A stretch of 64,000 nt of DNA, from NCBI GenBank assembly GCA_050084515.1, contig CM114271.1, positions 49,104,001-49,168,000 on the forward strand. The letters run 5' to 3'. The notes beneath the pieces were generated by a model. The model had not been told where the DNA came from and did no database searches. It worked only from the letters and a program-made list of their open reading frames with translations. Below are positions 372 through 58,803 of this stretch, piece after piece (the first letter of the stretch is position 1; each line of letters opens with the position of its first letter). The translations under genes were made by a program, and so were the position numbers. The stretch comes from Blasia pusilla. Its lineage: Eukaryota.

Positions 372-2659
372 TTTTGTACAATCAGCAAAGAGCTTATTTT
401 CAACCTTCAACAATTGCCACTGCGCATTGGTCGATCATGCCCATTCGACTCTCTCAACATCTCTTTGTGAGAACCACCACCAATTTTTGCAACTTTTACC
501 TTCACTTTACCTTCTCTACCTCAACACCAACACGGCTTGCTATATACAGAACAGGGAAATATGATCAACTATTCAAGAATACCTTGAATGATCCAAAATG
601 AAACCATGCAATGCAAGTGATCATGTCTTACCCTCCCCTTCATCAGAAATGCAGTCTCTTGATGCAAATGGTTGCGTTCTCTTCTTCTCTGATAGCTTGT
701 TGATCAATAAGCATGGAGAACGCCTCATTCTTACGGTATGCCAAACCCCCTTCCTCACCCCAACCTCCACCACCATGAGATCAACAAACTCGTCCAACGA
801 GCTTGACTATTCAACAACAACGGGTTGGTGGCATAAATTGGTCGCAACCCCCAATGGGCAAGGTTGGAGAGTGTACAAAGAGCATCCAATCTACATTCCT
901 TGCTAGTTACAGTAGTGTTAATATTTTTGAAGATGAAAGGAATTGTGGAGATGCACCAACAACAGAGATTGAGCAAAGGGGGGAATCTGCTATGGATAAT
1001 GGTAAGGTTGGAGAGTGTATAGAGAGCATCCAATCTGCATTCCTTGATGTACATAGTAGTTTCGACATTCCTGTGATAGAGAAAAGTGATGAACTGCATC
1101 TTAATATAGATTCTAAAGAGTACAAAAAAAATTCAGAAAGCACTCAAAGTGAGTCCTTATTGCTTGGAGATCATAGTACTAGCTCGAGTGTCCATAAAAA
1201 TAGAGTAGAAAACCTTTGACTATTGAGTACATGTATCCATGGAGAGAGCAGATCTCAGCGATTATGTGGTGGCTTATGATTTGAGTACACATGGGCAAGT
1301 AAGATCTAGAGGTATTCAAAAGAGGCAACATATATGTCTCCACAGAGAGAGCCATCACCTCCATGCATAGCGAGGGAGGCTGAAAAAGAGAGTAATGACC
1401 ACTTTAGTGATAAAAAATATTCCACTAGCAACGATGAGTTTGAAGACACTCCATCTTCTACTGGAGTTGAGAGCCTCGTCCTTGTGGATAAGGACCTTGA
1501 TGCTGATTTCCCAATTGACCAAGAATGTGCGAGGAAGATAAGGGGAAAAAAAAAAGACAAGCATTCTTACTTGGTGATATTCTTGCTGAGTAAGGAGTTC
1601 CCCCATTTGCATAATGTATATTCTCTTAATTGAATTTCCATCATGATTTTTTTTCTTCCTTGTACTTCACGTGTATATAGAAAAACAGAAAGATTTGATT
1701 ACTTATAGATGATTAATGGTGAAATGCTTGTTTGGAAAGCTAGGCTCAAACCAGCAAAGGAAACCTGGAAAGCCTTCCCTTCTAGAGTAGTAGTGGTAGA
1801 GGGTGTTGAAGTGCGACGAAGTTCAGGTTGAGATCAAAGGAGAGCTTACCTAATATGATTGAAAGCACAAAGGATAATACTGTGAGAGATCCTGATTATA
1901 TGCCACCTCAACATATGGATTTCCAATCTGATGATGATGAGGGCATGCCTTATCGTTCTATTGAGAACCAAGACTTTGGACCGACAATCCATCTCAAACA
2001 CATTGAGAGGGTAACTACTTTAAATCTGCCACTTCCTTTTTCATGATTGAATATAGGATTCCTCTAATCATGGTGATGAATAGAACTCTCCATAGCAGAT
2101 TCCCTCTTTTGCCCAATCTCCTCCTCTGTTCTTGGTGCATTTCCACATTTCCTTTCATCTTAAGAAATGATGCACACCTTGGAGTTAACTATCTCCTCAT
2201 GACATACTTGATCCTCTTCCGTGCTTGGATAAGGTTCCCAATCAACATCATGCACATAATCATATGAAGCCATACGAAGCACAAAAATTTCACTCTTGCT
2301 TCCTTGACGTTTCCACTTCACTATCCAAACTTGATGGTTCTTCCCATCAGGCAAGTCACTCCTTGCATCACATAAGCCTTAAGACGCAAGAATGGCCTCA
2401 AGATTTTCTCGATCACTAAAATCTTTTGCAATGGTACTATTGTGTTGGGCACCCCCCTTAATTCACAAAGTTTCTGTTGAGAAATGTGGTCAATGAGCTC
2501 AATCAGGGAAGGAATGATGAATGATTAACATGATGAAACATACATCTCAAGCAAGACCTCTATAACTCCTATCACAACCTTTGCCTCTATCTCTCACTAC
2601 TTACAATAAGACGTGTAGGAACTCTACAATCAACATGCATTGACTTTAGTGCAGAAATG

Positions 2660-5160
2660 TTATATACCTACATCCAATTCACATGTGTCATCTTCAGAAA
2701 CCTCATCCGTGGATACATGGACAACCAGCACATTATTGTCATCTCTATGGGCTGTCACTAATTCCTTAGCGGTCAACTCTATGGCACTGATTGTGTTCAT
2801 CGGTGGCATCCTATGGGGCAATGTTTCAAAATCTTGATCAAGGCCAATAGAATGTCCTTCATCAAGATTCCCCCCATCGTAGATATCATAAATTACTCTG
2901 CGAGATCTAGCTTCTTTCCTCAATACTACCTTCCATCCACTCCCCTCGTTAGCATCTCCAAAAACTACTTGTTCCACTTTAGATGGGAAAACAAAGGGTT
3001 GGTGATTCAAAGGCTCACAAGATCTAAGGTTGACAAGTAAGAAACCTTCATGGTCTCGCTTCATGGATGGCGTACGTGACTCCCAATCTGCCCCAACCCA
3101 TCTTCCTCTCATTAAGATGACACGCTGGTCTACGATCCCATAATCAAGTGCAATAATATCGACAAGAACTCCTACGTATGAATAAGCACTATTGTGGGAG
3201 TCATTATTCTCGTCCACAAATATTGCTCCAATTCCACTATCCTAAGTAGAGTATGCATTAGATCCACCCTCTCTCTCTATCCTAAAGTGGTTGCTATAAG
3301 CCTTCATAGACTTGTAAGAGAGTATTTTTTATTTTATTGAGGAGGAATTGATAAGGCTAATGCCTCTTCATCCACCTTCCCATTATTTTGCCTAGCATCT
3401 TGGAGGATAGCTGGTTGGATCCACTCTTCGGAAGGAATTGATGCCCTCTCAGAATCATATTTCTTAGCAAAAAGAACATTATGGGGCCAATGGACAAGGT
3501 GATCCGTTAGCTTTCGGGAATAGACAGGGTTTAGTGATGCTAAAAACCCACTCTACAAATTGAGAACACAAGTAATTAAATAATACTTGTGCCATGTAAC
3601 CATTGACTTGGTATTGTCTAAAACATAGTGGTGTGCCAAGATCATCAGATCTCTTGAAAGTCATACTTGCACTCCTACACCTTTGAGCTCCTCGCCAGCC
3701 ATTCCTTCTTCTTCACCCTCATCCCAAATTTGGGTCCTTACACCCTCGAATCTCTTCATATACTCAGTCACAAATCAAAAGCCTCGTCTTTCATATACCC
3801 CTCATCCATGCAACCTTCGGGCCGAGCTTTTGATCTCACATATTTCTTCAAAACATCCACATATCTCTCCATAGGATGCATCTATCGGAAAGCTAAAGGC
3901 CCACATATGTCCAATTCTTCAATTACATAGATCAAAAGATGTGTCATCACATAAAAAAAGGAAGGTGGGAAATGCATCTCCAAGAGACATAAGGTTGTCG
4001 TTGTTTCCTTGTGTAGTTTTTTGTAATATATAGGATCATACATTTTACAACACAGTAACCTGAAACTTTTACTCAAGCGCATGATTATCGAACGAACAGG
4101 AGCTTTCAATAGGCCACGATGGGCAAAAGGAAGGATTTGGTGAATGAGCACATGATAATAATGTGACTTCATGTTACCTAGATTCTTTTTAATCATATGC
4201 TTTCTTAGCTCACCACTATATCCTGTGGGCACCTTCAAGGACTAAATCCTAGATAAGAACGCGGCCAACTCTTGAGGTGATAAAATATAATCACATTGAG
4301 GTTTCACTAGGCCTTGAGGTCTACTTGGATGGGGTTGTAACCACAAGTGAGGTCTTATTCCACAAGCTTCCATATCTCTTCTAACCTTGACAATATCCTT
4401 CCCTATCAAGGTCTTCACCAAATTCTCTGCAATATTTTTCTCCATGTGCATAACATCTAGGGTATGTCGTATCAAAAGATGATACCATCAAGTCAAGGAA
4501 ATCTATGTTCATCATAAATAAATAAAATACTTGCTGCAAAATATATCACAAGCATGAGTAAGATAAAATCACATTGGTGCAGATACTCTCCAATATGGAA
4601 AATCTTACAATAGAGACCTTTTCTTCACCCGTGTCCTTTGGTAGGGATCACTTGGACCATTCTCTCGACCTCCACCCTCATCATATATTCTTTCTTCCTC
4701 TGCCCATCTAAGAATCTTGTTTGTTGTAATCCTTCGAGGTGCATCCCTAGACTCACCCCTTCCATTGAAGTGGGAACCATAGGCTTGTCTTCTCCATACA
4801 TGATCATGGGGAAGGTGTCTACGATGACAACCAAAAATAGACTTCCCACATTGTTTGGAGAAATCTGAATCTACATAAGGACCACATATTGTACACGCAA
4901 GTTTCCCACCATGGCTTTGCCCTGAGATTGTGCCATATGGTGGATAATCATTTATTGTCCAAAAGGTCATGGCTCTAAACAGAAAGCTTGAGGATCCATG
5001 TGGTCTACGCACATCATGGAATTCTACCCCATTCCACAACTCATGTAATTCAGCCTCCAAGGGGGCCAAGTAAGAGTTAATGTTCTCTCCATGGACACTC
5101 TCCTTACCGGGCATAATAAGAGCCAATATCACAGAACTTTTGGTTTGAAGCAAAGGTGGA
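2660..5160 (-). mobile_element. CACTA (En/Spm) transposase remnant, frameshifted and 5'-truncated
   Basis: Successive minus-strand ORFs carry Transposase_21-type motifs (LIMPG...YLAPLEAELHELWNGV...WTINDYP), LDVMHMEKNIAENL, DUF4218-type (LCLLEMHFPPSFF, YVRSKARPEG) and DUF4216-type (YVGVLVDIIALDY...PFVFPSKVEQV) motifs in the expected order. Confidence 0.9.
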
Positions 5161-6337
5161 AAATTTTAGTGAGAGCGCCAAAACCAGCCCGGAAAAAGAG
5201 GGACATCCCCTTACCAACTAAACTCACAATCTTTAGAGTCAAAATCAACATCTGAAATTATACGACTCCTTAAATGGGCTTAAAACACTAACATTTCCCC
5301 CAACTTGAGTCCTCCAAAACAGCCCATTGGCTTGGACATGCTACAAAACTATGCTTCCTAGAATAAAGAATTGCAGTACCTAAGAAAGGAAATTTATGAA
5401 GAACAAGTCGGACAATTTCCAAAGAAATGGAAAAGGTCTCTCCTACCACACTTTATTTATCCACACTCTCGTCTGCCCCCTCCTTCAAGTTTGACTTTGG
5501 ATTCCTATGCGGATGAATCATCCTAGTCACCACCACCCTCCTTAGTATGAAAAGACTATTAGCCCCATGCATACGTGTTACTAATGATGGGTGATTTGGA
5601 TTACCTATCATTAGCCACTGGTTGATACCAGTTGACCCCAATTAGATGAGCACAAACTCTGAATCAACCATCAATTCTTAACCATCCTTGACTTTTAGAA
5701 GCAATGCTTTCCTTATGCACTAACCTGAAAATTGAGAATTGCAACAAGACCCACTCGCAATCAAATTCATCACAACACAATATATGCATGCCTCTGAGAA
5801 GTGCACTTGTGCCCAATATTAGATACCCAGGCGCTACACCATTGCTGGGGGGCAATGGTGTGGCACCCCACCATCCCCAAAGGAGGTGATGTGCAAAATG
5901 TGAATGTTTTCATATAATGAAAATATTCGTATTGTAGAGTATGAATCATGATGTGCAGAATAGTTTTAGAGTAATCAGTTAGGACCCAGACAATTGACCG
6001 GTGGCCTTGCGGTTGGACATATATTTCTCTTTGTATCCATGGTGATACAACCATGAATCTGGAAATTTTTGGAGGTCCCCATCCTAGATTTAAGGGGGAG
6101 AATTACAACATTTACTCATACCAGATGCCGCAAAAATCTTCCGTCATATCTCATATTGAACTCACTCAGTCCCATGTGTTGGACTGGAAATTGCTTATCT
6201 ACATGTGGCGCTAGAATCATGTTGTGGACATTAAATTTATAAATCTCAATCTAAGGATGGATCTAATCAAAGTCATGGTAAAACACCCTGAACTGCAATT
6301 GAACTGTAAGACAAGTTAGTCTGTTTTGCGCAGCAGT

Positions 6338-7260
6338 CTATCGGAGCGATTCTACGACTCCTTGAATACTTTGCATAGCAACGAGCAGTCGGGTTTCCAC
6401 CAACACCTTCTCCCTGCGAATCTTCATCAACTTCAAGGTACTTGGCATTGATACGATTACCTTTTCATTGATGACCAAAACTTTCAAGGAGACGGGAATC
6501 AAAAGTTTAGAATACTTTGGCAAAGTGGCTTGCTTGGAAAGAAACATCAAGAGGAGTTCCACATTCTTCTCATCCCAGTTGGAGAGAGCACGTCCCAGGC
6601 CTTTCCAAACCACCAGCTCCTGCATGACTGCGACAAAAATCTTTGGATCTAAGGTGCACATCGCGGCGATGAGAGCGTCTTTGTACCGGAATTTCAGCAT
6701 AAACTTGTCATACTTCGTCATATTGGACTTCGTCAACTTGGCAAGGTAGAAATCTCCGTCTGAAGGTTTCTCTATGTGGCCACACAAAAATAGCGATGGT
6801 TTTTGGGGTTCAGCGGACGATCTCGTGCCCTCTCTGTGCTCATTTCGAGTCATGCTTGCAAGCGTCTCGCAGACAACACGAGAGCCCCTTCTTTGTCTAC
6901 CGGCCCTTTGACTCGATGTCGAATAGCAAGCATCCCAGATGACGAACCCATAGCCATGGTTCTACATTCAGGGGATACATCCATGGACAAGAGAGCATCC
7001 AAATACTTGGTTGGATGGGTGACCTTGAAGTGTTCCAATTCAAATACCTTACATGTCTATCCAAAGAAGCGGAGAGCAGGCGGGGCAAGGAATCAGCGCC
7101 GGCTGATCCGTCGAGAGAAGGAGTCATGAGACACAACTTAGTCATAGTCTTCTGGTGGCTCTCGATACTTTCCACCTATAACGACAAGTCTTGCATGAGA
7201 TCCTCTGGAACTATTCCCAATATCTAAGCCGTGTGATGACGGCAGAGGTGATAATCCTTT
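6338..7260 (-). pseudogene. UTP15: UTP15/SLOW WALKER1-like fragment (last WD40 repeats plus UTP15 C-terminal domain)
   Basis: ESHQKTMTKL...RLLSASLD, FKVTH...LLSMDVSPE..MAMG and YDKFMLKFRYKDAL..AVMQEL..LGRALS..LLMFLSKQATLPKY lie in three frames; N-terminal half is missing. Confidence 0.8.
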
Positions 7261-8919: not shown

Positions 8920-11830
8920 TTTCTACATGATAAAATTGGAAAATCATGATTTGTGGCTCTTGTAGGAATAGAAAAAAATTCATGACGATTTTTTTTTAAT
9001 GAAAAATTAAGGATCCTACCTCGCATCAAGATACGACGATATCTCGTCAACAAGGTCATTTGCATTGGATGTATCCATATCCTTTGATAACTTAAATGAC
9101 ACCGCATCAGACCCCTTAAAAAAATATTTGTATAAGTAATTGATGGCAGACACACTACTTGTGATTTACAAATTGATGTGACAATAAAAAAGGATGGATA
9201 ATATAGGATTGTAGGGCACAATCCAACGATTATCCAATGAATGTTCGCACTTGATTATCGCCCTCCCATTCTCCAATCTTAGAAAACACAGTAAGAAATC
9301 ATGAATCTATCAAGGTCATATGCCTTAGAGTAATATAAATATAAGCCAAGCTAAAAGGATCCTTACCTGCGAAAAATTGGATAGCCGTCTTCCGTCTCTA
9401 TAGTGTTGGCCGCAAAAGCTTTAGGATAGCCTCTTGTACAATTTTTTGTTTCCTTATCCATACATGGAGCATTAGGATTAAATGGTCCATATGGCTTATG
9501 AATCATACAATTAGTAACAGTAGAATACAACCTTGGATGGGTAGATTGATCAAGGATTTCTGCCGAAATAACATGATCATAATCTGAAGTGGTATGTGGT
9601 TTATCTTCACGACCTAATATAATAAGAACGTGCACATGTGGCAAACCTTTTTTTTGGAATTCCATCACATTAATGCATCCAACAACTTGACCCAATATCT
9701 GATTTTTTATGATAAGTCGTAGCAACTCCTTCTTCTTCTCAAAAACCCGCACAACCACATCCGCACGATCCGTAGCTGATTGACCTGGTAATAAGGCTAA
9801 TGTAATCTTCTCCCACTTTGGATTACATGTCATGGTCAAAAGGTAGTCATGCTTCCCCAAATGTCTTACAATTTCCATTACATCTTGATACAATTGATGC
9901 ATATGATGCGACCCTCCAATAAAAGAAGGTAATATAATGCGTCTCCCAAACCTTCGACTATCCACATCCTGTCGATGCAGAAGATCTTTCACAACTTGAT
10001 ATAATTTGGCCCTTAACTCCTTCTGATTTAAGCGAACCTAAGATAACCGTTGCATCTCTACAATGGCATAGAGATCAACCATGTATTCTTGAGTGAGTCA
10101 ACCAAACCGCAATAACCGATTGTTATCTTTGCCTCTAGCCCGTGTTTGAAGTCGAAAACATACAAATTGCAACGCCGTAACACTTTTTTGATTTCCTTTC
10201 CACAATACCATCACCATCAAATCGTTCCTCATCCATGCAATCTTCTGAAGGTTCAATGTGTTCCTCCTCGTGAATAATGCGGCCCAATCGTTGTGATTCT
10301 CTATAGCCTTCAATTCTTCCAAACGGTATTCGAGGATGCTAACTAGCTTCACCATAGATAAATAATAGAACAAAATATAATGGAATATATGCTTCATTGA
10401 GGTCAGAGATACGCCTCACTCCTCCTCCATATAGTCGTACAATGATATCATGATGGTCAACATATTCACTTCCATCACCCGGTAAAATAGCAGCAACCTC
10501 AAAAGCAGTTGGTAAGTTATAACGCTTTGCATGGAGCCCTCTCTTACTTGCTTTGAGGATAATCCACATATTAAGGGTCACTTGCTTCATACGCCATATC
10601 ACGAAAGATCTTCACATATGGATTGTATTCATGTAACATGTCTTGTAGCCCTGTTAGAATGTCAATATTAAGATGAGATGATCTAGACATAACTCTTCCA
10701 CAATTCCCCAATTCATTTGTAGTATTATGGATGTAGAGTTGAGCAAATTGGGGATGGCCGCCTATCTCATTTACATACACTCCGGTACAAGCAAGTTGGA
10801 GTGTAGAATTGTAAGCTCAAAAATGTGTAAGAAAATGATGATTTCTCGGACTAACACCCGAAATCAATGATTTCAAAAATGGAGGAGACGATTTCAAAAG
10901 GGGTAACTCTATTCTTCCATGGCCACAACACATGCCATACGGAGAATCACTAAACTTAGTGCCCCTGATGATTTCATATTTCCAATGCAAAGCTTGTCAT
11001 GATGGGCATATCTCTGTCATAGAACTTAATGTATGACGACCGTTGGTACGATTCAAACTCCTTTGTACTCGCAACTTCCTAATATCACTTTCTTGGAATT
11101 TGGTCTCTTGGCAAGATTGAGTAATGTATTCAATCTTCCAACCCTATTAACAGTAGACACCGGACGAATAATGGCGCTTTGTGGAGATAACACAACTCCA
11201 TCAATGGTAGAAGACACAAGATCTACTCCTGACCTTACTTCATCCCCCGCATGGGGGAATGTCTCAAAATTGTCGACAACATCATGGTCAACCGGAATGG
11301 AAAGAGTGGTAGGTAACTCAACTCGTGGTGTTACATAAGTAGTAGCCCTGCTCGGGGATATATTCTCGATAACTGCATGGAGTGCACTATCTGCTATACC
11401 AAGTCTTCTTTATTTTCTCCTACGTTACTCCATCCTCATTGAAAGGCCTGAGAAAACATTAACATATTATAATGAGCAGATAGAAATAAAAGATGAACAA
11501 TGAAGCGAATGATTTAGAGTAAGATAAGAAAAGTAAGATATATGTACCTCGAGAATTGACTATCAATAGTCATGAGGTCATTATTTTCCATAGTTGAAAT
11601 ACTCTCAACTACCAAAGTAGGCTCAACTTGAGCATTAAGCGCTTTCCTTCTTTTTCTATACTCTTGATAGTAACTCCTCTTTTTTTCTTTGAGAGCTTCC
11701 ATTTTATCAGCACGAATAACCCATTCTCGTTTTTGGGTTTCCCCGTGTAGAACCTTCCGAAAATCACGTATATTGACAAGATTCAATGGAATGGGAAGTT
11801 TGGAACAACAAATGAATGGTAGGAACAAAT
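8920..11830 (-). mobile_element. Helitron RepHel remnant (Rep region; helicase absent)
   Basis: Motifs PQFAQLYI, RYNLPTAFEVAAIL, TMTCNPKW, EFQKKGLPHVHVL, GYPIFRR, then after a GT-AG intron (9278-9366) LDNRWIVPYNP...YLYKYFFKG; many stops and frameshifts. Confidence 0.92.
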
Positions 11831-34450: not shown

Positions 34451-34509
34451 CATGAACCATCCCATGTACCTTCACTTCAAGGTTATAATTTGATCAAGAG
34501 CTACGATGT

Positions 34510-34800
34510 CTAGGATCTAGGGGTTAGGGTTTAGGATCTAAGGTGTATGGCTTAGGATTTTGGATCTTTGGTATATTGCTTAAGGTTTAGGGTTTGGGGT
34601 TTAGGGTCTAGATTTTAGGGTTTAGGGTCAATGGCTTAAGATTTAGGGTCTATGACTTTAAGTGAAGGTTTAGTGTGTAGGATTTACGATATAGATTTTA
34701 GTGTTTAAGCTCATAATATGGCTTAGGATGTTGTGTGTATGGCTTAGGGTTTAGACACTATAAAGGATATATGGTTTGGGACCTAGCATATCAGGTTTAG
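34510..34800 (+). repeat. Degenerate interstitial telomere-like (TTTAGGG) 7-mer array
   Basis: Repeated GGTTTAG/TTTAGGG units interspersed with variants. Confidence 0.75.
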
Positions 34801-42942: not shown

Positions 42943-43896
<954 letters not shown>

Positions 43897-47670: not shown

Positions 47671-49092
47671 CGCTAGTCAATCAGTCTTCTTCCTCTTGAA
47701 CGTGGCAAAGCCCTTGCCATTTCAAGCCTCTTCCTTTTCTTGTTTTTCCCCCTATTTTGGCATGAGCATAGACGATGGCATGGCAAAGAGGAGGGCTTTG
47801 AAAGTGGTTTGGGAAGACCACTTTCAAAGCCCTTTGGGTTTACCACCTCCATATGGTAAAACCAAAGGTAGGGATGGGTATGGCTAGCAAGGCAAAAAAA
47901 TGGCTCCATAAATGGAGTGAGGAAATTCGAGAGTAAGGGGCTTGAAGAGAATAGTTAGTGCCTTGGGTTGTCTTGTGAAATCTTAGTTGAAGGCGTTTCT
48001 TCACATAATCGTGCAGCATGTGTTCAAGAAATGCATGCTTGTGTGTGATGTGTGGGTGGATCGGACCAGCAATCTAAATATCATCAAGTCATCCAAAACA
48101 CAATTATGGTAGAGGTCCAAAATGGAGCTACAACTTCTCCTAAGTGCATGTAGACCATGATCAACATGTTTTCTTTGGATTGTCATCACCACATGATGAT
48201 AGAGGCCCACAAGGAATTATAGGGGGCTTTTGAGTCAGAGGAGGATCACGAGGCATGGTTGTTGGCTTTAGAAACACCTACCAACTATAATCGAGCTTCA
48301 TGGGTGTCAATCCTACGGATGGAGGTACTAGTTGGAGGCTCGCGCAGAAAGCAAGTGGACTAATAGCGGTTGGTGGAAGCATGGTATTTGACTCAAATGC
48401 CAAAGGGGACACATTCCTTAGTCACGGAGGAGAGGAGGCATTTTAACATGCCTTTATGATTATCTATTATCTTACATTACTGCCCTCAGAATGTAGGGAT
48501 AGTTTTTTGTATTATAGAATACTTCACTAATTATGTGGGTGCCTTGTGCACTTTACAAAGTGTATTGAGTTATGACTTCTCAAGTTGTGGATGATGTGGG
48601 ATAGTGTTGAGAGACATGAGATGATGTATTTTCCAATCAAGGATGTATTAGCATCCAAGGTCAGTTCTTGAAACTTTAATAGTCCATGTAGTGTTCTCCA
48701 ATTTATTTCTTTCAATAAAGTTTTTAACTACACTTTCCCCTTTATGGCGTAGCATGATTTGTCGCATCCCAATGATGCCATAGTGAAGGAGGAGCGATGA
48801 CCGGCACACGCGCCCATGTTGATCGGCTCACATCTACATCTGGGAATGGATCAAGTTTTCGGAGGAGGGGACGATTTGTGTCATGCGCATACCTATCGCT
48901 ACATAACATACATCGCTGGTCACATCTACACCACACAACACCGATCTTCCCCACACACGGGTCGATCCACACATGTACAAAAATCAACTTGTACATATAC
49001 ATGGAGATTACACAACCGCCCCCCTAGCTGGCAGTTGGATCCCCCCAACTCCAGATAGAAAAAATCACATCTCTCTGACATGACCTACTACC

Positions 49093-49231
49093 CTATACAC
49101 ATCTCGGACACATCCATCGTCCCGTGGGAACCACATCAAGAGGGGGTCAGACATGACATATGCCACCCTCGAGAACAACCATCACATACCAACATGGTGG
49201 CTGCACCCCTCGTAGATCCACATAACATACA
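49093..49231 (-). pseudogene. PHD finger at the integrase C-terminus
   Basis: CMLC...MLVCDGCSRGWHMSCLTP/LDVVPTGRWMCPRC gives a full C4HC3 pattern across one frameshift. Confidence 0.9.
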
Positions 49232-49239
49232 CCTTAACC

Positions 49240-50450
49240 CTGCAGGTACCACTTCCAAGCTCGGATCCACTGTCCCGTCTACGTTTGGAAGATGACATGG
49301 CGCACAATTGCGCACATGATCCTTCCAAACCATACCATCCCGTCCCTCCAACATGAAGACTTCGGTCGGTAATACCTTGCGCATACGTAGGATCGTGCGC
49401 CCTGCAGTGACATCTAGCGTCGTGGGTGCCGCCTACTGTAAATACATGTAATCTCCAAGATGAAACCTCCTAATCCCTGGACGATAACCTCCTCCACGAA
49501 TGGTCGCATACCTCAATGTATCTCTATGCTAAGCAATAGCTAAGTTCTCAAAGGCCATGGGCATAACTCTACGAAAAACCTCCACCCTCTGAGAACATGC
49601 TTGTACCCATACATCTGGATCATCAAGATCTAACACCTCCTCCATGTCACGTCGAATTGCTGCAAGTAAATCTGGCTCTCTTCCAAAGAGCAAAAAGTAT
49701 GGTGAAAATGACGCCAAGGATGCTTGTCGACTAAAGCGATAACCCATAGCCAACCATGGGAACTATAAGTCCCACTCCCTCAACTGTCCCCGTTGCAAGC
49801 CATACTTGCGCACAATCCTCTCTTCACTGTCTGTACCACTCTCTTCGCCAACCCATCCGCTCAGGATGATCTCTGGACGTTGTATAGTGATCTATCAGTG
49901 CCTGATCACACAAGGCCTGAAACTCTCCCCTGAACTCGATACCCTGGTCAGTCAATACCTCCGCCGATGCACCAAAGTGACTAAGCACATGATCTAGAAT
50001 GCATAAGTTGTTCCCTCATTTGCCTTGTCCGATAGTGCCACCAACTCTATCCACTTGGAGAAATGCTCCACCATGACCAACACGTACCTATGATGACGCC
50101 CCGTCAATGACAAAGGTCCTCGCAAAGTCTAAACTCCACCAATAACCTAAACCCATAATTGGCAAAGGATGTAGTTGCGGAGTGGGAGCATTGAAGGATG
50201 CTCGCACTCTGTCACATACCATACATCTGGCCACAAGCTGCTGTACCCCAGTATGCATGCCGCACCACCAATATTGAATCTGGAGTAAGCTGTAAGTACG
50301 CTTCACTCCAAAATGTCCCAACTCATCATGGGCATGTCGCACTACACGTGCTCGCTGGGAAGGATGAGGTACCACTCGTATCCTACCATCTCCCCATACC
50401 CGCAAAATGTGAGTCCCCTCCCACCTGAACCTCCTGGCTCTCTGTAGGAT
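49240..50450 (-). pseudogene. Gypsy integrase (H2C2 zinc finger plus core)
   Basis: HAHDELGHFG...YWW...CMVC, WSLDF, FSPYFLLFGREP; several frameshifts. Confidence 0.92.
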
Positions 50451-50717: not shown

Positions 50718-51140
50718 CTAACTCGAACATGGATTACGAATCAACCCATCTGCATCTTGGTTCAGCCAACCTGGCCTATGAACCACCTCAAACTCATACT
50801 CCTGTAGTAATAGAGCCCATCTGGCAAGCTTTCCCGTAAGCTTGTCGGACTCCATCAACCACCTCAACGGTTGATGATCAGTGATAAGTGTGAAAGGGTT
50901 GCCGAATAAATAGCACCTGAGATGTGCCATGGCCCACACTGTAGCCAAGCACTCTCCCTCGTAGGAGCTATACTTTGCCTTTGCAATGTTGTTTGGTTGG
51001 TTCGCGTAAGCCACAACGAACTCCCTCTCCTTGTCATCCCTCTGAGTAAGCACTGCTCTTAGACCCAACATGCTCCAATCCGTATGTAACTGGAATGGGC
51101 GATCCCTAACCGGTCTCTGTAAAATGGGTGAGGACGTCAA
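50718..51140 (-). pseudogene. Ty3-type RNase H
   Basis: FQLHTDWS, YSSYEGECLA, FTLITDHQPL, LARWALLLQEY. Confidence 0.93.
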
Positions 51141-51249
51141 CTTGTCCTTGAGCTCCTAAAATGCTTGCTCCAGATCATCTCCCGACAACCAAACCTGATC
51201 AAGTCTCGTCAACAAGGTCAAAGACTTTGCGATCGTACTAAAACCCTTG

Positions 51250-52050
51250 ACATACCGTCGATAGAAGTTCGCCAGTCCAAGAAATGATCGGACTCAACTC
51301 ACATCTGTAGGGCATGGAATCTGCGCAATAGCCTCTACCTTCGTCTGCTGAACGCCTAACCCACTCGGGTATATGGTGTGTCCCAAATACTCAATCTCCT
51401 CCTGAAAGAATCTGCACTAGCATGGATGTAACTTAGGTCCATGTAACTGCAATTGTCGAAACACCTCCTCCAAGTGTCACTCATGCTTCTCAACCGTGGA
51501 AATAAAGATAAGAATATCATCTATGTAACATCGTACAAAATCCAAGCCAGCCAAAATCCTATCCATCACTCTCTGAAACTCTGCAGGCGCGTTCTTCAAC
51601 CCAAATGGTAAGAACCGCCACAGTTACAAGCAATCTCTCCCGAACCGATCTATCCCCCATAATGTTGTCTTCTCCCTGTCCTCCAACCTGATAGGAAGTT
51701 GATGATAGCCAACACGGAGATCTAAAGTATTGAAGATCTTTGCATGCCCTATCGCATCAAAGATCTCCTCAGGAGTAGGCATGGCGTACCGATCTGACCT
51801 CGTATGTCGGTTGATAGGACGGTAATCTCCACACATCTGCCTAACTGTCCAATTGCCATACATATCCTTCTTCTTCGGCATGACTGTGGCAGATGCATAC
51901 TCCCCATGTGATAACTCCACAAGTCCTGCCTCCAACAAGTCCTGACTCCTGCTCTGAATCAAGGCTCGCTCCATATCGAATACCAGAGGGTCGATTTAAA
52001 GATCGGTGTATCACTAGCCAACTCAATCCGTATCTCGGGACCCTTCAGCG
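51250..52050 (-). pseudogene. Reverse transcriptase
   Basis: MCGDYRPIN, LDLRVGYHQ, PFGLKNAP, and YIDD at ~51516-51527; in-frame stops. Confidence 0.95.
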
Positions 52051-52480
52051 TACCCAAGTCTCTCATATTGAAGGCAAAACAACTGACATGCCCTCTCAAA
52101 AACGTATGAACTCGCCGTCGCTCTCCTCCTATCAACTTGAGACCTATCACAGGCTCCCAAATCTCCATCGTGACCTCACTTGGAGAGGACGCAACCTCCG
52201 GCTTTGGTTGCTATGTAGCAACCCTAACCACCTCCGCAACACCAACTCCACTCTGACTTCCTACACCATGCTCCACATCCAAAAAATGAACATGTGCTAC
52301 TCTGGCCGCCTTCGCACTCTCTGCTCGAACGACGTCCCAGGAAGTCCATGGTTGCCTATCTCTCCTCGTCTCGCCCCCAGCCAATGCCTGTACAAACCCT
52401 ATAGGCAATGGTCCAACTCGTGGACGTGACGGCATGGATGACACTCGCGTCCACCTCTGCTCAGCCATACCTAGGCTGAC

Positions 52481-53480
52481 TATCCATGTGAGACAATTGA
52501 GGTCCATTGCCTTCCCCAACACCTATCTTCGGGATGCCTCAGTCATCCCTGGCACCGCCGTAGTACTGATAGCGAACCCCATGGCGGGCTCGTGCTCATC
52601 TGTTGTAGGCTCCTCCAATGCTCCAGTCACCTCATCCCAAATCATGCCTAGCCTTCCCCGACGAAAGGCATGGGATGTTGCGAAGCTCACCAACGTATGT
52701 AAGGCTACCCTCAACTCCCCCACCCTAATGGCCATCGCCAACGGTGGTCTATCATCCCATGTCACCACATGAGATCAACGCCTTGAGTCCTAAATAGCAT
52801 CCACTGTGAGATGTGGTGCTCTCTGGACTCCATCGTATGCTCGACCCAGTACCTCTCATGGTATCAGGTTCGTCCACCATAGTAGTGGACAATGGGCACG
52901 TGATCCAACTCTCGCTGCATCTAACAACATAGCAGGTCCCAACAAGGACCTCACTTGATGCACACTCGTCATCACACATGCACGAGTGTCTCCCAAAAAT
53001 AACACGTTCTACAAAATATACGTTGGAGAACATGTTTGACTCTCTGGATCCTGCAATCCAAATCTTGCAACATCTCCCAAAACTTCCCTGACCTCGGATC
53101 CTACAATCCAAATCTCGCAACACCTCCCAAAACATCCCTAACCTCAGATCATGCAATCCAAATCCTCGGCCAGGTGATGAATGGCCCTGACATGTCCATC
53201 CAACAATCACCAAATGAATGGTGCCAACTCTATCCAGATCCTGCGCCCCCACCAAAGAGATGTCGGCGGGTAGTGTATGCTGATATCCCCGAACGGCAGA
53301 TATCGGCAACAACTCAGGATACCTCTGGACCAATCTCGCCACGTGACGTAATGATACTCACCACGCGGTCTCATCTCTCTCCACATAAAGGTACTGATGC
53401 ACCCGTATACCCGCCTGCAATATTGCAGCCAATCCGGTGCTAATCCCTCCGAAGAGATCTAACACCCTAACACCCTCCTC
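52481..53480 (-). pseudogene. DNMT3-like C5-cytosine DNA methyltransferase domain inside pol
   Basis: Motif I VLDLFGGI, II YVERD, III ADI, IV VIVGWTCQG, VI YIL*NV, VIII LLDAARVGSRAHCPLLWWTNL, IX EHEPAMGF, X RR*VLGKAM, in DNMT3 order and spacing. Confidence 0.9.
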
Positions 53481-53762: not shown

Positions 53763-54239
53763 CTAGCTAACACTACCTGTGAAAGCTGCCAACAGGGTCA
53801 CAGACTCGCCTCGTGATCGACCACCTTGTCCCGCAAACTGCACGGATAACTGACTCATCCGCCCGTCACCTGACCGCCACCTTGGCTGATAAGCAACGGT
53901 CTCCTCCCAGAAGTCAATGATGAATCCTAGGGGGTATAACACTGTACTCCCCACCAACACATCGTACGACTCAACTGGTATCGTAATCGTGCGTGTGCAC
54001 ACCATAGCACTATCCGTCGCATGCTCATGCTGGACTTTGACAACTATCTTCTGTTGAGTCATATATTGCCTGGGTGACACGCCCTCAATCGAGGTCTGTA
54101 TCTGGAAGGGACAAGGCTCAATGTCGGCCTTCCGTAACCCCAACGCTAAACACGCCGCCTTCCCTAACATCAAGGGTTGCGCTCCCGAAACAAGTAGGAC
54201 GCGCTGCGGGTGGTATAATGTCCCCGTCGGACTAACCAA
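53763..54239 (-). pseudogene. Retroviral-type aspartic protease
   Basis: RVLLVSGA (LLDSGA with Asp to Val) and YDVLVG motif. Confidence 0.8.
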
Positions 54240-55356
54240 GCAAAATACTCCAGCTCACTTATCCAATAACACTACTCCAGGTGTCACCACTCCTTGCTCT
54301 ATGGCCAGTCGAGCTGGCATATCTACCAATTTTGCCGCCGCCGCATGCCATGACTCTATGGGGAACGTCATGAGCACCGGCTCTGAGGGCAAGTCCTCCA
54401 CCTCCTCAACTACCTCTAAACAAGAAGCAGTCACCTCTCCATGCTCACACAACATGGCGGCGAGCCGGAACACCTCAGTTGGTCCAACTCCCAACGTCGC
54501 CAACTCTATGGCGGAAAATAGTGGAGTCTTACTCACTTTGGTGGCCACCTCCAACACTATGGTCGACACTGACTCCACTCGAGCCGGCATAGGAGTTGTC
54601 ACTCCAACTCCTTGTGATGTTGACGCACCTGCCTGAGCTATAGGCATCGCTGGTCGTCGAGGCACCATCGATGGTGTGTAGTGCCTCCGACAATATGAAT
54701 GATTGTAGAACCCTGGCCTGCCGCCCATCGGTTCCCTCTGGAGGGTCAATCTCAACTCCACCTCTCGATGGCTCGGTGCCTCTCGCAGTACCCCGAGTCA
54801 CCACTGCATCTGCCTCAACCTGGGCTGCACTACACATAAACCCCATACTGGCGAGATCCTCACCCGGTTACTTCCCGTGGTTGATCTATTTTCCTGTTTT
54901 CGCCCTGACCATCCTCAGGGCCCAAGGGGACCAGACCATTGGGAAAGGGATAGGTCCGGAGGAGGCCCCCAGCGTGGGCCAAAGGTCGCTCCGGCGTCAA
55001 TAGCTTTATCTTTTTTAAGCAATAAAGGCTCTTGACAAACAAGCAAGTATCCACAAAAGGACCTTTCCATATAGAGCGTGTCTTAAACTAATTTCTGTGT
55101 TTCCTTATTACTGTTTTAAATCCACCTTTGGTAGGCTTGCCCCAAGGTGATACCGAAGGTCTACCTCCTAGATATACTACGGAAAAAAATTGTCGAAATA
55201 CTGAACATGGTGGTGAAACTCTATTGCGCGAGTAGCATGGGGCACGTGGAATCACGTATGAAGTAGCTCAAGGAAGGTTAGAGCCATACTAGCTGCTCGC
55301 GGCTCCGTGCCTTCCCTGAGCTGCATCATCGTCATGGCATCAATCCTCTGCTCCAA

Positions 55357-56659
55357 CTAATCGATACGTGAGAGAAGTGCCAGCTCTGGTGCTCCTGCTC
55401 CATCTTGTCTAGCTGGTGGTGGTCCTCTACCACCACGTCTAGGAAGAACTCCCTGACCTCCTCCATGACGACCGCCCCCAGGCCCTCGGCCTACCTCTGG
55501 ACGTGACTCTCGGAGAAGGTCAAAACACCTATCCCTAGTGTGACCATATCTGTGGCAATAGTCACACTCGTGCCATGGTGGGGCCATCCTCTGTGGCTCT
55601 TGAGCAATCGAAGGCGCTCGTGGTCCTCTCCCATGCTGTGGGCAGTCTCTCTGCCTATGGGCCCCTCCACACGTCCAACAAGACCACATTGGTCCCTGTT
55701 GGGCAACATATGTAGGTACGGGTCGTTGCCTCATATGCTCACGATACCCGACCTGCTCTCTAGGCACACCGGCCTGTTCCCGTGGTACTAGTGCTTGCTG
55801 TGGCACCTGTGGGGTCACCGTCGCTTGTGGACCCGTCGACTCTCAAGAAAATCCAGCGGTCACTACCTGCTCCTCACTCATGTTGAGCTCAATACGCTCA
55901 GACAACTCAAAGACCACCTTCAATGTGGGCTTTCGCTGTGTGAATCAGCACCGCATCTCGGACTCTCCTCCGTAGTTCTCGATCCAAAACCCTGTACCAA
56001 TACTAGATTGACTGCGCCTCAGTCACTCCATGTGTAGCAATGATCAGCCTCTTCATGCGTGTGAATGCCTCTCTCAGACTCTCACCCGATCGTCGCTGAA
56101 AATCCTGTAGATTCTTCAGCTTGTCGGTGCATACACCCTGGTAGCTCTTCCCCAACTGTCGGTAGAACTCCACTATGGGGCTGAAGCTGGGTGGCCCTCT
56201 ACCACCAGAGGTCTCTGCCATATCGCTTGTCTCACTGCCCTTCTCTCCTTCTAGTCTCCAGGCTGATGGTGTGGGTCTCTCTCCTCTCACAATCCCATCA
56301 TATGCCTCGTGACCACTAGTGGACACATACCCTAGAGCCCAATACATCCTCCAAGCATCGATCTCTACTGAATATAGTGATCGAAACTCCATCTAGTCAT
56401 CCATCGAAGGACCCTCCAAGTGCTGGAACAACCTCTTCCATGCCATGAAAGGGTTGAACCGTGTCGGGGTCCGTATCTCCTAGAAGTCGCACCACGTGTC
56501 GAACTCTTGGATAAAATCATCTAAGTCGATGGTGCCCATTGCACCCAAGAAACAACGCATGCCCCGATGGCCCATGTCGTCCATCTCCTGCCAAGTGATA
56601 CTGCCTCCGTCTACAATCTCCTCACCAAACTCGGTGTCTAGTGATGACGATCCAGCCAT
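55357..56659 (-). pseudogene. Gag with two zinc knuckles
   Basis: FQRRSGESLREA (major-homology-like) plus CWTCGGAHRQRDC and CDYCHRYGHTRDRC; in-frame stops. Confidence 0.85.
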
Positions 56660-58803
56660 GGATGGATGTCGAGGTATCTCCTTACTCGTAACCCCTCAAT
56701 ATCTCACTCCACTCCGTGTCACTCCACTACTACTACTCGCACTATCCCGTTCTTTCGAACCCTAGAAGAAAGCCGTGATGATAACCTTGTCTCACCCGCT
56801 CAAGCACTCAGACTCACCGAGAGTCTCCCACACTCCTCACTAGCTCACCTATGCTAACATCAATCCCGTGATGACATACCCGGCCTCACGCACACTCAAC
56901 ACTCGGGCTCACCATGAGCCTCCCAACTGACTCACCTAACCTAGCGACACTCTCTCGGGTCATACACGTGATCCCTACTGGGCAACTGCCGTATATCCAC
57001 CAACATGCTATACATGAAAAGAATCTACACTCGTCACCATCATTGCACCCACCTAGCACTAGCTACTACTCGATACCCAGCTTTCTCAATCTCACAGGAC
57101 AAGTGCGGGAAAAGGGACTCGAATGGGTAACCTGATCACACCCTCCAACCTACTTCATCGTCAACACGCACTCCCCCATGTGACACGGCAACCTCATGAT
57201 TGGCAAACTCCCGTCGCAAATCCCATCCACGCTTGCAAATCACCAAATGCAGAAACGAGCTCCCATTGCACAACTCGCCTCAACCACGTCCAATTGCTCA
57301 ACCTCGTAGCCTGAGTCAACCTGGTTTGGCTCCACTCCTACCACGTACGCACTGTCCGATCACATCAACATGACCCCGACCACATTTGACCTTGCCCGAC
57401 CACATCCGGACTCTCAACCATGTAGCTCAACATCATCCACGTCCGCTATCCAACTATGTAGGTCACTTACCACGTCGGTATCCTCACCGCCACCACGTTA
57501 CCTAAATGGGGGGCCTTACGGCCTCCCCAAAGTGCGGGAAAGGGGGTGCGTCTCGCACCCCCTCCGCCTCCGCACTCCACATCTTTTCCGCCTCCGCGCT
57601 TGGCTGCTTCCGCCTCCTCTACGCCCTAAACCTAGCCGCGCCTAGCCCTAGCCGTCCTTGCAACCCTAGCCTTGGCGGCTACAAACTCTCAACGTTTCCT
57701 TTCTACACTCCCGTTGTGCGCCATTCTCTCGACGCTCCAACACTCTCCGTTGCACCCGAACGCTCTTGCGTAACCCCCACTCTGTTGTTGTCCCTCGTCA
57801 ACCTGCACCCAAAAAATCTGAGAAAAATGGACAACGCTTCCGCCCACGACCTTTCGAACAGAAAAATGACCAACACCCGCAACACACGCGTCTCCAGGGG
57901 CTCCCGACCAAGGCAACTCGCTTGCCTACCTGCAAACAACGAATTCCCACCAGCCCCCTGACATCTTTCTCATGTAAAAATAAAGAGTAGTAAAAATGGC
58001 ACACCCGGCCTTAAAATCCACTGCTTAATCTACATCGGCATATCGAGCCTCGTCCACCCTGTGCTATCAAGGAATCCGGATGCTAGCACCCTAGTCCTAT
58101 CTCACACATATACAAGAGAGGTGCTCCAACGGCCCAACATGAGAAAGATGGCTTAGGAAAGACATCTTCCTCTCTTATATAGGGTTGGGAAGAGCCAAAA
58201 GGCTCTTCCCCCAAAAATAGCCATCCCCTTGGTAACCTACGCGCACGGGTTACCAGGGGCGGGTGACCTGGTCAACAAGTCACCCGGCTGTGAAAGACCT
58301 CAACATGAAAGTTGTCAGAAATGATGTTCTTGACACAATAGACCTATTCTCAGCCTCATCCGACATCATGGGACAAAGTTACACTCAAGATAGTCTGCTG
58401 GCTCCTACGCCCTATCCACGATAGATCTCGGCCTATCGGCTACTCAGATGTGACATTTGAATGATGGATCCTAGAATAAGGAGGAGGAGGAGGAGGGCAA
58501 GGGGGATGAGGAGATTCTCCTTATAGTGTCTAGCCGCTCTAAGGTAGAGTAGGAGGTACCCATTGGATAGTTCTTCTAGTGGAAGCCCTAGGCCTATTAG
58601 CAATGGGCGTTGTAATATGGCATACGACCAAAATAGTCCTATCAAGGTAGCTATTGGTAGTGACAAGATGCATGCAAAAACAACGTCCATTGGGACTTTT
58701 TCATGTACTAGACCTTCTACGCATTCGACATTGTTGTTAGTGACCCCCTGAGTGCAAAAAGGAAACATAGATCCAAAGCATAGGAGGCCCATCCCATCAT
58801 TTA

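Follow-up and report, generated by a model that had tools for sequence, protein, structure and literature searches.

A DNMT3-carrying Ty3/Gypsy retrotransposon family of a liverwort ends its integrase in a conserved PHD finger

DNA methyltransferase (DNMT)-carrying retrotransposons have been described from dinoflagellates and one charophyte alga. In chromoviruses a chromodomain sits at the C-terminus of the integrase, and in animal DNMT3A and DNMT3L a PHD-like fold, the ADD domain, is encoded together with the DNMT3 catalytic domain, N-terminal to it and in cis. KnitGypsy-Dnmt3 of Klebsormidium nitens (PMC5890265) has the same Gypsy domain set as the element that we describe here, with a DNMT3-related domain in its polyprotein, a DIRS-like repeat layout and purifying selection on the DNMT; the word PHD is absent from the main text and text supplements of that paper, though its Fig. 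4c may label one, and its accessible text does not mention an internal stop. The KnitGypsy-Dnmt3 enzyme gave no methylation in yeast, in a test that the authors call inconclusive (PMC5890265). Gypsy-7a_cRei of Chlamydomonas reinhardtii is a Gypsy element with a PHD in its Gag-Pol, which was proposed to limit harmful insertions; its insertions lie between genes 2.6 times more often than chance predicts, which, as the authors concede, may reflect selection (PMC9940879). In EpiLTRs of Cymbomonas and Euglena a single LTR element encodes both a reader of chromatin, which is a chromodomain, and a cytosine methyltransferase, which is sister to DNMT4, and DAM is also present (10.64898/2026.05.21.726589). 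The reader domain that ends the chromovirus integrase probably guides target choice, as in MAGGY targeting (10.1101/2021.11.30.470311). PHDs in retrotransposons have been called widespread (PMC6673714; 10.1101/2021.11.30.470311), and one review describes transposon methylases as absent from land plants "such as tracheophytes" (PMC6338049). In accessible text, our literature search turned up no description of a PHD that ends an integrase and is linked to DNMT3, of an internal stop or of a land-plant host for a DNMT3 Gypsy, though Repbase, figures, preprint supplements and subscription papers may describe the PHD; the PHD-DNMT3 combination is likewise absent from the accessible text of PMC11982613, PMC10952607, PMC9985172, PMC6317226 and 10.64898/2026.09.17.752431.

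We analysed a stretch of 64,000 nucleotides from the liverwort Blasia pusilla, hereafter the window. From 58455 to 48879 on its minus strand, on which all coding features of the element lie, we found an element with TG..CA ends and a 4-bp target-site duplication (48875..48878, partner at 58456-58459), encoding in order gag with two knuckles, a protease-like region (PR), a C5 methyltransferase, reverse transcriptase (RT), RNase H (RH), integrase (IN) and a PHD finger. The gag-PR-RT-RH-IN order, the DDE integrase, the TG..CA ends and the short target duplication are those of Ty3/Gypsy elements, and the top PDB match of one relative (P0003) is Ty3 Gag-Pol. Gag (55281..56660) has CCHC knuckles at 55680 and 55566, and its end continues in frame into the linker before PR in two sister copies (L006 and L016). 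The aspartic-protease-like region (53950..54300) is placed by position; it has no Pfam match in the window copy, and the corresponding place of relative P0186 does, with similarity in related loci too. RT and RNase H (50796..51872) match Pfam RVT_1 and RT_RNaseH in Ty3/Gypsy order, and they are followed by an integrase (49232..50340), broken in this copy, with an H2C2 zinc finger at ~50336, DDE core residues at 50138 and 49955 and a beta-rich C-terminal part at ~49459. The window copy is a decayed full-length DNMT3-carrying Ty3/Gypsy insertion with split terminal repeats. A ~414-bp piece at 54867..55281 is found in this copy only and is missing from the sister copies that cover the region. Many RNA reads match only at 55229-55262, inside this piece and on the strand opposite to the element's other reads, and these may derive from expressed host sequence.

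The split repeats consist of part A (57976..58455, minus strand, 480 bp), which starts with TG and contains a TATA (58181-58176) and a self-primer complement (58150-58137), and part B (48879..49016, minus strand, 138 bp), which ends in CA and is preceded by a purine-rich tract. The primer-binding-site position (57962..57975, minus strand) holds 14 nt complementary to the presumed RNA 5' end, and of 13 copies examined (window included) seven have this 14-nt complement, from which we infer Tf1-like self-priming. Of 20 copies, 16 have a 3' end that reads B1-A2-B2, three are arranged A-internal-B like the window copy and one is interrupted. Twelve copies with both ends comprise four with exact 4-bp target duplications, five with one mismatch, one that lies in a microsatellite and two with none. 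Parts A1 and A2 diverge by 3.4-9.0% in eight copies; the family is therefore old and the window copy dead. The B|A junction is mostly a precise palindrome and the A|B junction varies, as would be expected if circles that had been opened within the LTR were integrated. The true LTR seems to have the structure B-GC-A and to be flanked by the purine tract and the primer site. The palindromic B|A junction is where inserted copies are opened, and their forms are consistent with circles of one and of two LTRs. A ~950-bp non-autonomous derivative at 42943-43895 combines the A and B ends with a short stretch derived from the DNMT and a long CT microsatellite, and it has a target duplication of 4 bp.

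The methyltransferase (52480..53465; motifs I, IV, VI, VIII and X at 53465-52499) is broken in the window by stops and a 50-nt tandem duplication (53046-53145). A Pfam search of the window copy returned no DNMT match, and we identified the domain from its motifs and from sister copies. For an unbroken sister stretch the best PDB match is human DNMT3A (E 2.7e-8), which outranks DRM2 and HhaI and aligns at motifs I, IV, VI and VIII. The catalytic PC motif is kept in 14/18 and 18/19 copies, and ENV in 17/18 and 12/19. As in Gypsy-Dnmt3 elements, the DNMT3-related domain is an intronless, unrearranged part of the polyprotein with its catalytic motifs, and the repeats are split in DIRS-like fashion. 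PF00145 is annotated for only 5 of 120 listed homologues, and our own profile detects the domain in many more; routine annotation can therefore miss the DNMT. We sought a shared DNMT-only deletion family among RT-less copies and found none, the breaks differing between copies. Strong PF00145 matches without element similarity on the small contigs C20 and C23 (L161-L164) are possibly microbial or viral DNA in the assembly.

The C4HC3 PHD finger (49093..49231) forms the C-terminal end of the RT-RH-IN ORF: its first zinc-ligand Cys begins at 49231, it directly adjoins the C-terminal part of the integrase, and the ORF ends two codons past the last Cys, with a stop codon that ends at 49093. In the window copy the ligands C-C-C-C-H-C share one frame, from which a frameshift in a short run of one base near 49140 has displaced the final two Cys. 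Even so broken, this copy matches PF00628 over profile positions 1-31 of 47 (25.5 bits against a cut-off of 24 bits; E 1.4e-5), and four unbroken sister copies from the same genome match positions 1-47 of 47 at 46.0-46.8 bits. The six-ligand pattern occurs just once in the 16 kb examined and arose in 1 of 200 shuffles. Among 30 copies from this genome, the window copy counted in, each of the first six ligands is retained in 29-30, and the last two Cys are in frame in 18, have one substitution in two and are frameshifted at the same run in 10. A second subfamily in the genome, at ~75% nucleotide identity, also has the PHD (25 of the 30 best PF00628 loci), and PF00628 is found in 119 of 120 listed homologues (240 found, with a query that included the PHD).

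To assess constraint, we computed dN/dS for pairs of natural copies. Among members of the window's subfamily, PHD evolution is neutral (1.05), as is expected of dead copies after insertion. Between groups, PHD dN/dS is 0.135 against the second subfamily and 0.121 against metagenome relatives (14 pairs each), beside 0.144 and 0.085, respectively, for the 100 codons upstream, which are part of the integrase; for the DNMT it is 0.178 (18 pairs). The PHD and the DNMT3-like domain are both under purifying selection. The original prediction held that a C4HC3 PHD ends the polyprotein and that the element encodes a reader-type PHD alongside a methyltransferase, and it would have fallen with an absent or unconstrained finger. 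On these points it was right: the coordinates are exact, the ORF terminates right after the finger, the PF00628 profile is passed and is matched in full in the unbroken sisters, and both domains are constrained.

The family is abundant. In a Hi-C library, DNA reads at ≥85% likeness reached a depth of ~2,300-3,900 in the bins of the DNMT and the PHD and of ~3-11 in bins of the unique flanks, which implies several hundred close copies, and 2.3% of read records aligned to the element. In 20 content-blind 10-kb stretches, a small sample, 7,245 of 200,000 bases match the window's subfamily at ≥85%, and 29,075 match any of three baits, such that matches to the superfamily cover ~14% of sampled DNA, a figure in which RT matches may include other Gypsy families. 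Altogether, the host genome holds hundreds to over a thousand close copies; first-look candidate counts (11,415; 9,023; 7,670; 5,347) are not copy numbers. Each of three RNA-seq runs gave ~2,100-2,600 reads on the element, mostly sense. Only 1-4 reads are 99% alike to the window copy and 75-78% ran on unlike, so the RNA comes from other copies or subfamilies. Copies show a C-to-T excess of 0.086 at CG and 0.094 at CHG against 0.029 at CHH, which fits host methylation as well as methylation by the element's own enzyme. Elsewhere in the window, pieces at 6341-6961, 3885-5165 and 9366-10037 represent a UTP15 C-terminal exon, CACTA transposase pieces (Tnp2, DUF4218) and a Helitron piece, and a degenerate interstitial TTTAGGG-like repeat array lies at 34504-34752. 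As a marker of host lineage, a UTP15 search yielded nothing, and an LHCB protein of the host shares 94-96% identity with Marchantia proteins and 90-92% with those of Sphagnum, Calypogeia and ferns, so that by this one gene the host is most likely a complex thalloid liverwort.

We then asked how regularly the PHD and the DNMT occur together. In the liverwort genome, the DNMT is at least partly kept in 17 of 20 copies selected by IN-PHD, and the PHD follows the DNMT in 14/20 and 10/20 copies selected by DNMT; those lacking the PHD have partly or wholly lost the integrase or, in one case, were retrieved as a stretch without that side. Named hosts of homologues are Coleochaete scutata, a transcript of which has 71% identity over IN-PHD, Haematococcus, Pleodorina and Tetrabaena, with one protein labelled Chrzof; no match under the name K. 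nitens is among the listed homologues. With a PHD-free RT-RH-IN query, the best 150 proteins comprised 42 with DNMT and IN-PHD, 12 with IN-PHD and no DNMT in the ORF, eight with DNMT and no PHD, four with the PHD before IN, five with neither and 79 chimeric multi-element models. In an RT-RH tree (FastTree, midpoint-rooted, SH-like support only; every fourth chimeric multi-RT protein kept, 27 proteins added from the PHD-containing search), an 86-row clade (SH 99) holds the placed DNMT-bearing and IN-PHD rows, and the PHD follows IN in 75 of them. Most PHD-less members end or shift frame before the PHD place; P0080 has a degenerate finger and P0210 appears to be without one. The combination of PHD and DNMT3 therefore marks a deep clade that spans Coleochaete, chlorophytes and the host liverwort, and the co-occurrence of the two domains across related elements, a check proposed with the original prediction, is supported.

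Within this clade the DNMT occupies one of two slots. One lies ahead of RT, as in the window; the other, used by the named chlorophytes, falls between RH and IN, ~200-400 residues before the integrase in a single ORF. In three proteins (P0082, P0088 and P0231) both slots are visible in one ORF, the DNMT is missing and IN-PHD is retained. Given these slot changes and losses against a constant IN-PHD, the PHD belongs to the integrase, with the DNMT as a frequent, movable and dispensable partner. Several elements with the DNMT after RH (P0038, P0040, P0055, P0106, P0112 and others) also have a tail of 280-420 residues behind the PHD, often with motifs like DPWAGTG and TSPWF. As a lead only, the P0040 tail lies nearest phage N6-methyltransferase clusters (Atlas, 0.93; PF02384 in 36% of members), and going by such likenesses these chlorophyte-type members may combine two kinds of methyltransferase, the second N6/N4-like, with a PHD. 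Outside the 86-row clade, the Gypsy polyprotein P0330 carries a Dam domain (PF05869) ahead of RT, and its PHD precedes the integrase.

The DNMT and the PHD are separated by a stop. An in-frame TAG followed by CAA CCA (52205..52213, minus strand, read from 52213) lies between DNMT and RT in the window, and 15 of 16 aligned copies share it. It also occurs in 13 of the 18 copies that were selected by DNMT and include RT, and in most members of a more distant group. Metagenome loci read in the RT frame have the stop at the same place in 18 of 28 cases, and the other 10 shift frame before it. In the unbroken relatives L084 and L091 it is the sole break between the DNMT ORF and the RT-IN-PHD ORF; L084 has a 1369-codon Gag-PR-DNMT ORF, one stop and then a 1047-codon RT-RH-IN-PHD ORF. 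The context at 52213 fits the CAR-YYA readthrough signal, a stop context on which the literature search found no paper. The DNMT3-like domain thus lies upstream of the conserved stop, in the Gag-PR ORF, and from the stop between them we infer that the DNMT is made at the Gag level and the PHD only by readthrough.

This arrangement points to separate jobs for the two domains, with the PHD serving integrase targeting and the DNMT serving methylation of the element's own cDNA, a reading that we favour with moderate confidence. Gag-PR-DNMT would be made at the Gag level and packed into the particle, where the DNMT would methylate the element's own cDNA; RT-RH-IN-PHD would be made by occasional readthrough of the stop. 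After cleavage the PHD would stay attached to the integrase and tether it to the free H3 N-terminus (Ala1-Arg2), disfavouring H3K4me3 promoters. The PHD would then be a chromodomain substitute in target choice rather than an ADD-like regulator of the DNMT. If the DNMT is made at the Gag level, cDNA would probably be methylated inside the particle, the route that de Mendoza et al. suggested for DIRS elements (PMC5890265), and a one-to-one ADD-like pair in the window's family becomes less likely. The intergenic excess of insertions of the PHD-bearing Gypsy-7a_cRei, for which selection may be the cause, is in line with a targeting role of the PHD. Against two-level expression, the frame stays open from DNMT into RT in P0186, P0012, P0272, P0329 and other relatives, and against separate products, the chlorophyte-type arrangement keeps DNMT, IN and PHD in one ORF.

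These exceptions bear on a second explanation, in which one complex, or a polypeptide that stays uncleaved, lets the PHD deliver the DNMT to the integration site, such that the new copy and its flanks become methylated on H3K4-unmethylated chromatin. The ADD domain does such targeting for DNMT3A. The explanation draws on the 42 of the best 150 proteins that carry DNMT and IN-PHD on a single element, on the spacing of ~200-400 residues between the post-RH DNMT and the integrase within one ORF, on the purifying selection on both domains and on the 14/20 and 10/20 copies in which the PHD follows the DNMT, the PHD-less ones having lost part or all of the integrase or been retrieved without it. However, linkage alone predicts co-occurrence on one element, at least three relatives keep the PHD without the DNMT, and the finger resembles KDM5/CHD4/ATXR5-type PHDs, with no DNMT3 ADD in the best 60 of 78 PDB matches. 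In the window's family, moreover, the stop assigns the DNMT to the Gag product and leaves the PHD to the readthrough product, and across relatives the PHD stays with the integrase while the DNMT moves between slots or disappears. The ADD-like pairing of reader and writer in the original prediction is not supported by these two observations, and we regard coupling as unlikely overall; it is most possible in relatives where DNMT and IN-PHD share an ORF.

What the PHD might read can be judged in part from its pockets. We compared residues in the 112 homologues with all eight ligands (8 of 120 were dropped because the pattern was missing), taking the cage Trp position to lie two residues before the His. 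This position is Gly in 104 of 112 and Trp in none. In PHDs, reading of K4me3 depends on a Trp that is invariant in the cage, and reading of K4me0 on acids that precede Cys1 (PMC3241642, in which DNMT3L is also mentioned); a K4me3 preference of the ING/BPTF type thus appears unlikely. In KDM5A PHD1, Ala1 is bound by Leu, Pro and Trp, and an Asp after Cys3 is needed for Arg2 (10.1101/715474). This Arg2 Asp is kept in 104 of the 112 homologues and the Ala1 pocket has Trp or Phe in all 112, so that both the pocket for Ala1 (Leu, Pro, Gly, Trp) and the Asp that binds Arg2 in BHC80/AIRE/KDM5-type fingers are conserved. The K4me0 acids (before Cys1, and at the KDM5A E305/D306 places) are present in 65/96 and 65/96 other homologues, in 6/16 and 4/16 of the closest relatives and in none of the window's family. 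With these acids missing from the window's family, its H3 binding may be weak or K4-blind, and any K4me0 selectivity is putative.

In structural comparison, the best 60 of 78 PDB matches include CHD4, DPF, KDM5A/B PHD1, BHC80, ATXR5, AIRE and UHRF1 fingers, which we take to be mostly readers of the unmodified H3 tail, and no ING, BPTF or DNMT3 ADD entries. The IN-PHD model is poor overall (mean pLDDT 50.6) and better over the PHD (73-83), where the modelled finger overlays the ATXR5 PHD-H3 structure at 1.1 Å over 49 columns and lies at ~1 Å from the ATXR5, DPF3 and UHRF1 PHDs. Prediction of a complex between the PHD and unmodified H3(1-33) gave a score of 0.41, where the best control reached 0.02 (96% agreement of contacts, pLDDT of the partner 56), on a scale where 51 of 78 solved and 2 of 108 mismatched pairs reached the mark, values of 0.60 or below are more often wrong unless the pair was likely beforehand, and PHD-H3, as a textbook pair, can pass by likeness. 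Most likely the PHD holds the H3 N-terminus. The predicted histone-guided targeting therefore survives in part: the Ala1 and Arg2 pockets and the weak PHD-H3 prediction speak for it, while reading of the K4 state is doubtful, with the cage Trp found in 0/112 and the acids absent from the window's family.

The same data could also describe a finger that is a constrained structural or protein-binding module, contacting an integrase multimer, Gag or a host protein, and that has ceased to read histones in this lineage. PHD folds that do not bind H3 are known (PMC9640981), the acids of the K4 pocket are missing in the window's family and rare in its closest relatives, and the H3 prediction is weak. 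Nonetheless, an Ala1 pocket and Arg2 Asp conserved across 112 homologues, and the overlay on the ATXR5 PHD-H3 structure at 1.1 Å, speak against such a module, which we consider improbable. That the PHD is a host-gene fragment captured by the window copy alone, or a chance Cys pattern, as a broken copy and a short domain might suggest, is refuted to near certainty by the full PF00628 matches in sister copies, the 30-copy ligand survey, the same placement in the second subfamily, the presence in 119/120 listed homologues (with a PHD-containing query) and the dN/dS of 0.12-0.14.

Taken together, our results show that a DNMT-carrying retrotransposon makes up a large part of a liverwort genome, and that chlorophytes, a charophyte and a bryophyte share the link between DNMT3 and a PHD on the integrase. 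As to what the DNMT is for, the conserved stop offers a testable answer, since a Gag-level enzyme inside the particle predicts methylation of the element's own cDNA. A bolder and rather doubtful synthesis is that an old green-lineage Gypsy clade with split repeats, until recently alive in land plants, rebuilt the logic of DNMT3A, with the PHD picking H3K4-unmethylated nucleosomes and a co-packaged Gag-level DNMT3 methylating the incoming cDNA and flanks. If so, each insertion would arrive pre-methylated, independent of host RdDM, and a superfamily at ~14% of sampled DNA may have shaped the host methylome.

Of the described systems, KnitGypsy-Dnmt3 is likened to this element by description, and the present family differs in its land-plant host and its far higher copy number. 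Gypsy-7a_cRei has its PHD between RH and INT and, in the accessible text of its description, lists no DNMT (PMC9940879), unlike the window element, and proteins with a PHD between RH and IN fall outside the 86-row clade. Where EpiLTRs have a chromodomain, a DNMT4-sister enzyme and DAM, this element has a PHD and a DNMT3-like domain, and the window copy gave no match to Dam or a chromodomain. In contrast to the ADD domain, which shares one polypeptide with the DNMT3 catalytic domain, the PHD is a canonical C4HC3 finger encoded ~3.3 kb downstream of the DNMT, beyond a conserved stop, RT, RH and IN. As for chromoviruses, none of 45 relatives scanned against Pfam (45/45) matched a chromodomain, and the PHD that stands in its place would read the H3 N-terminus rather than H3K9me, making it a second solution, besides the chromodomain, for a histone reader on a Gypsy integrase.
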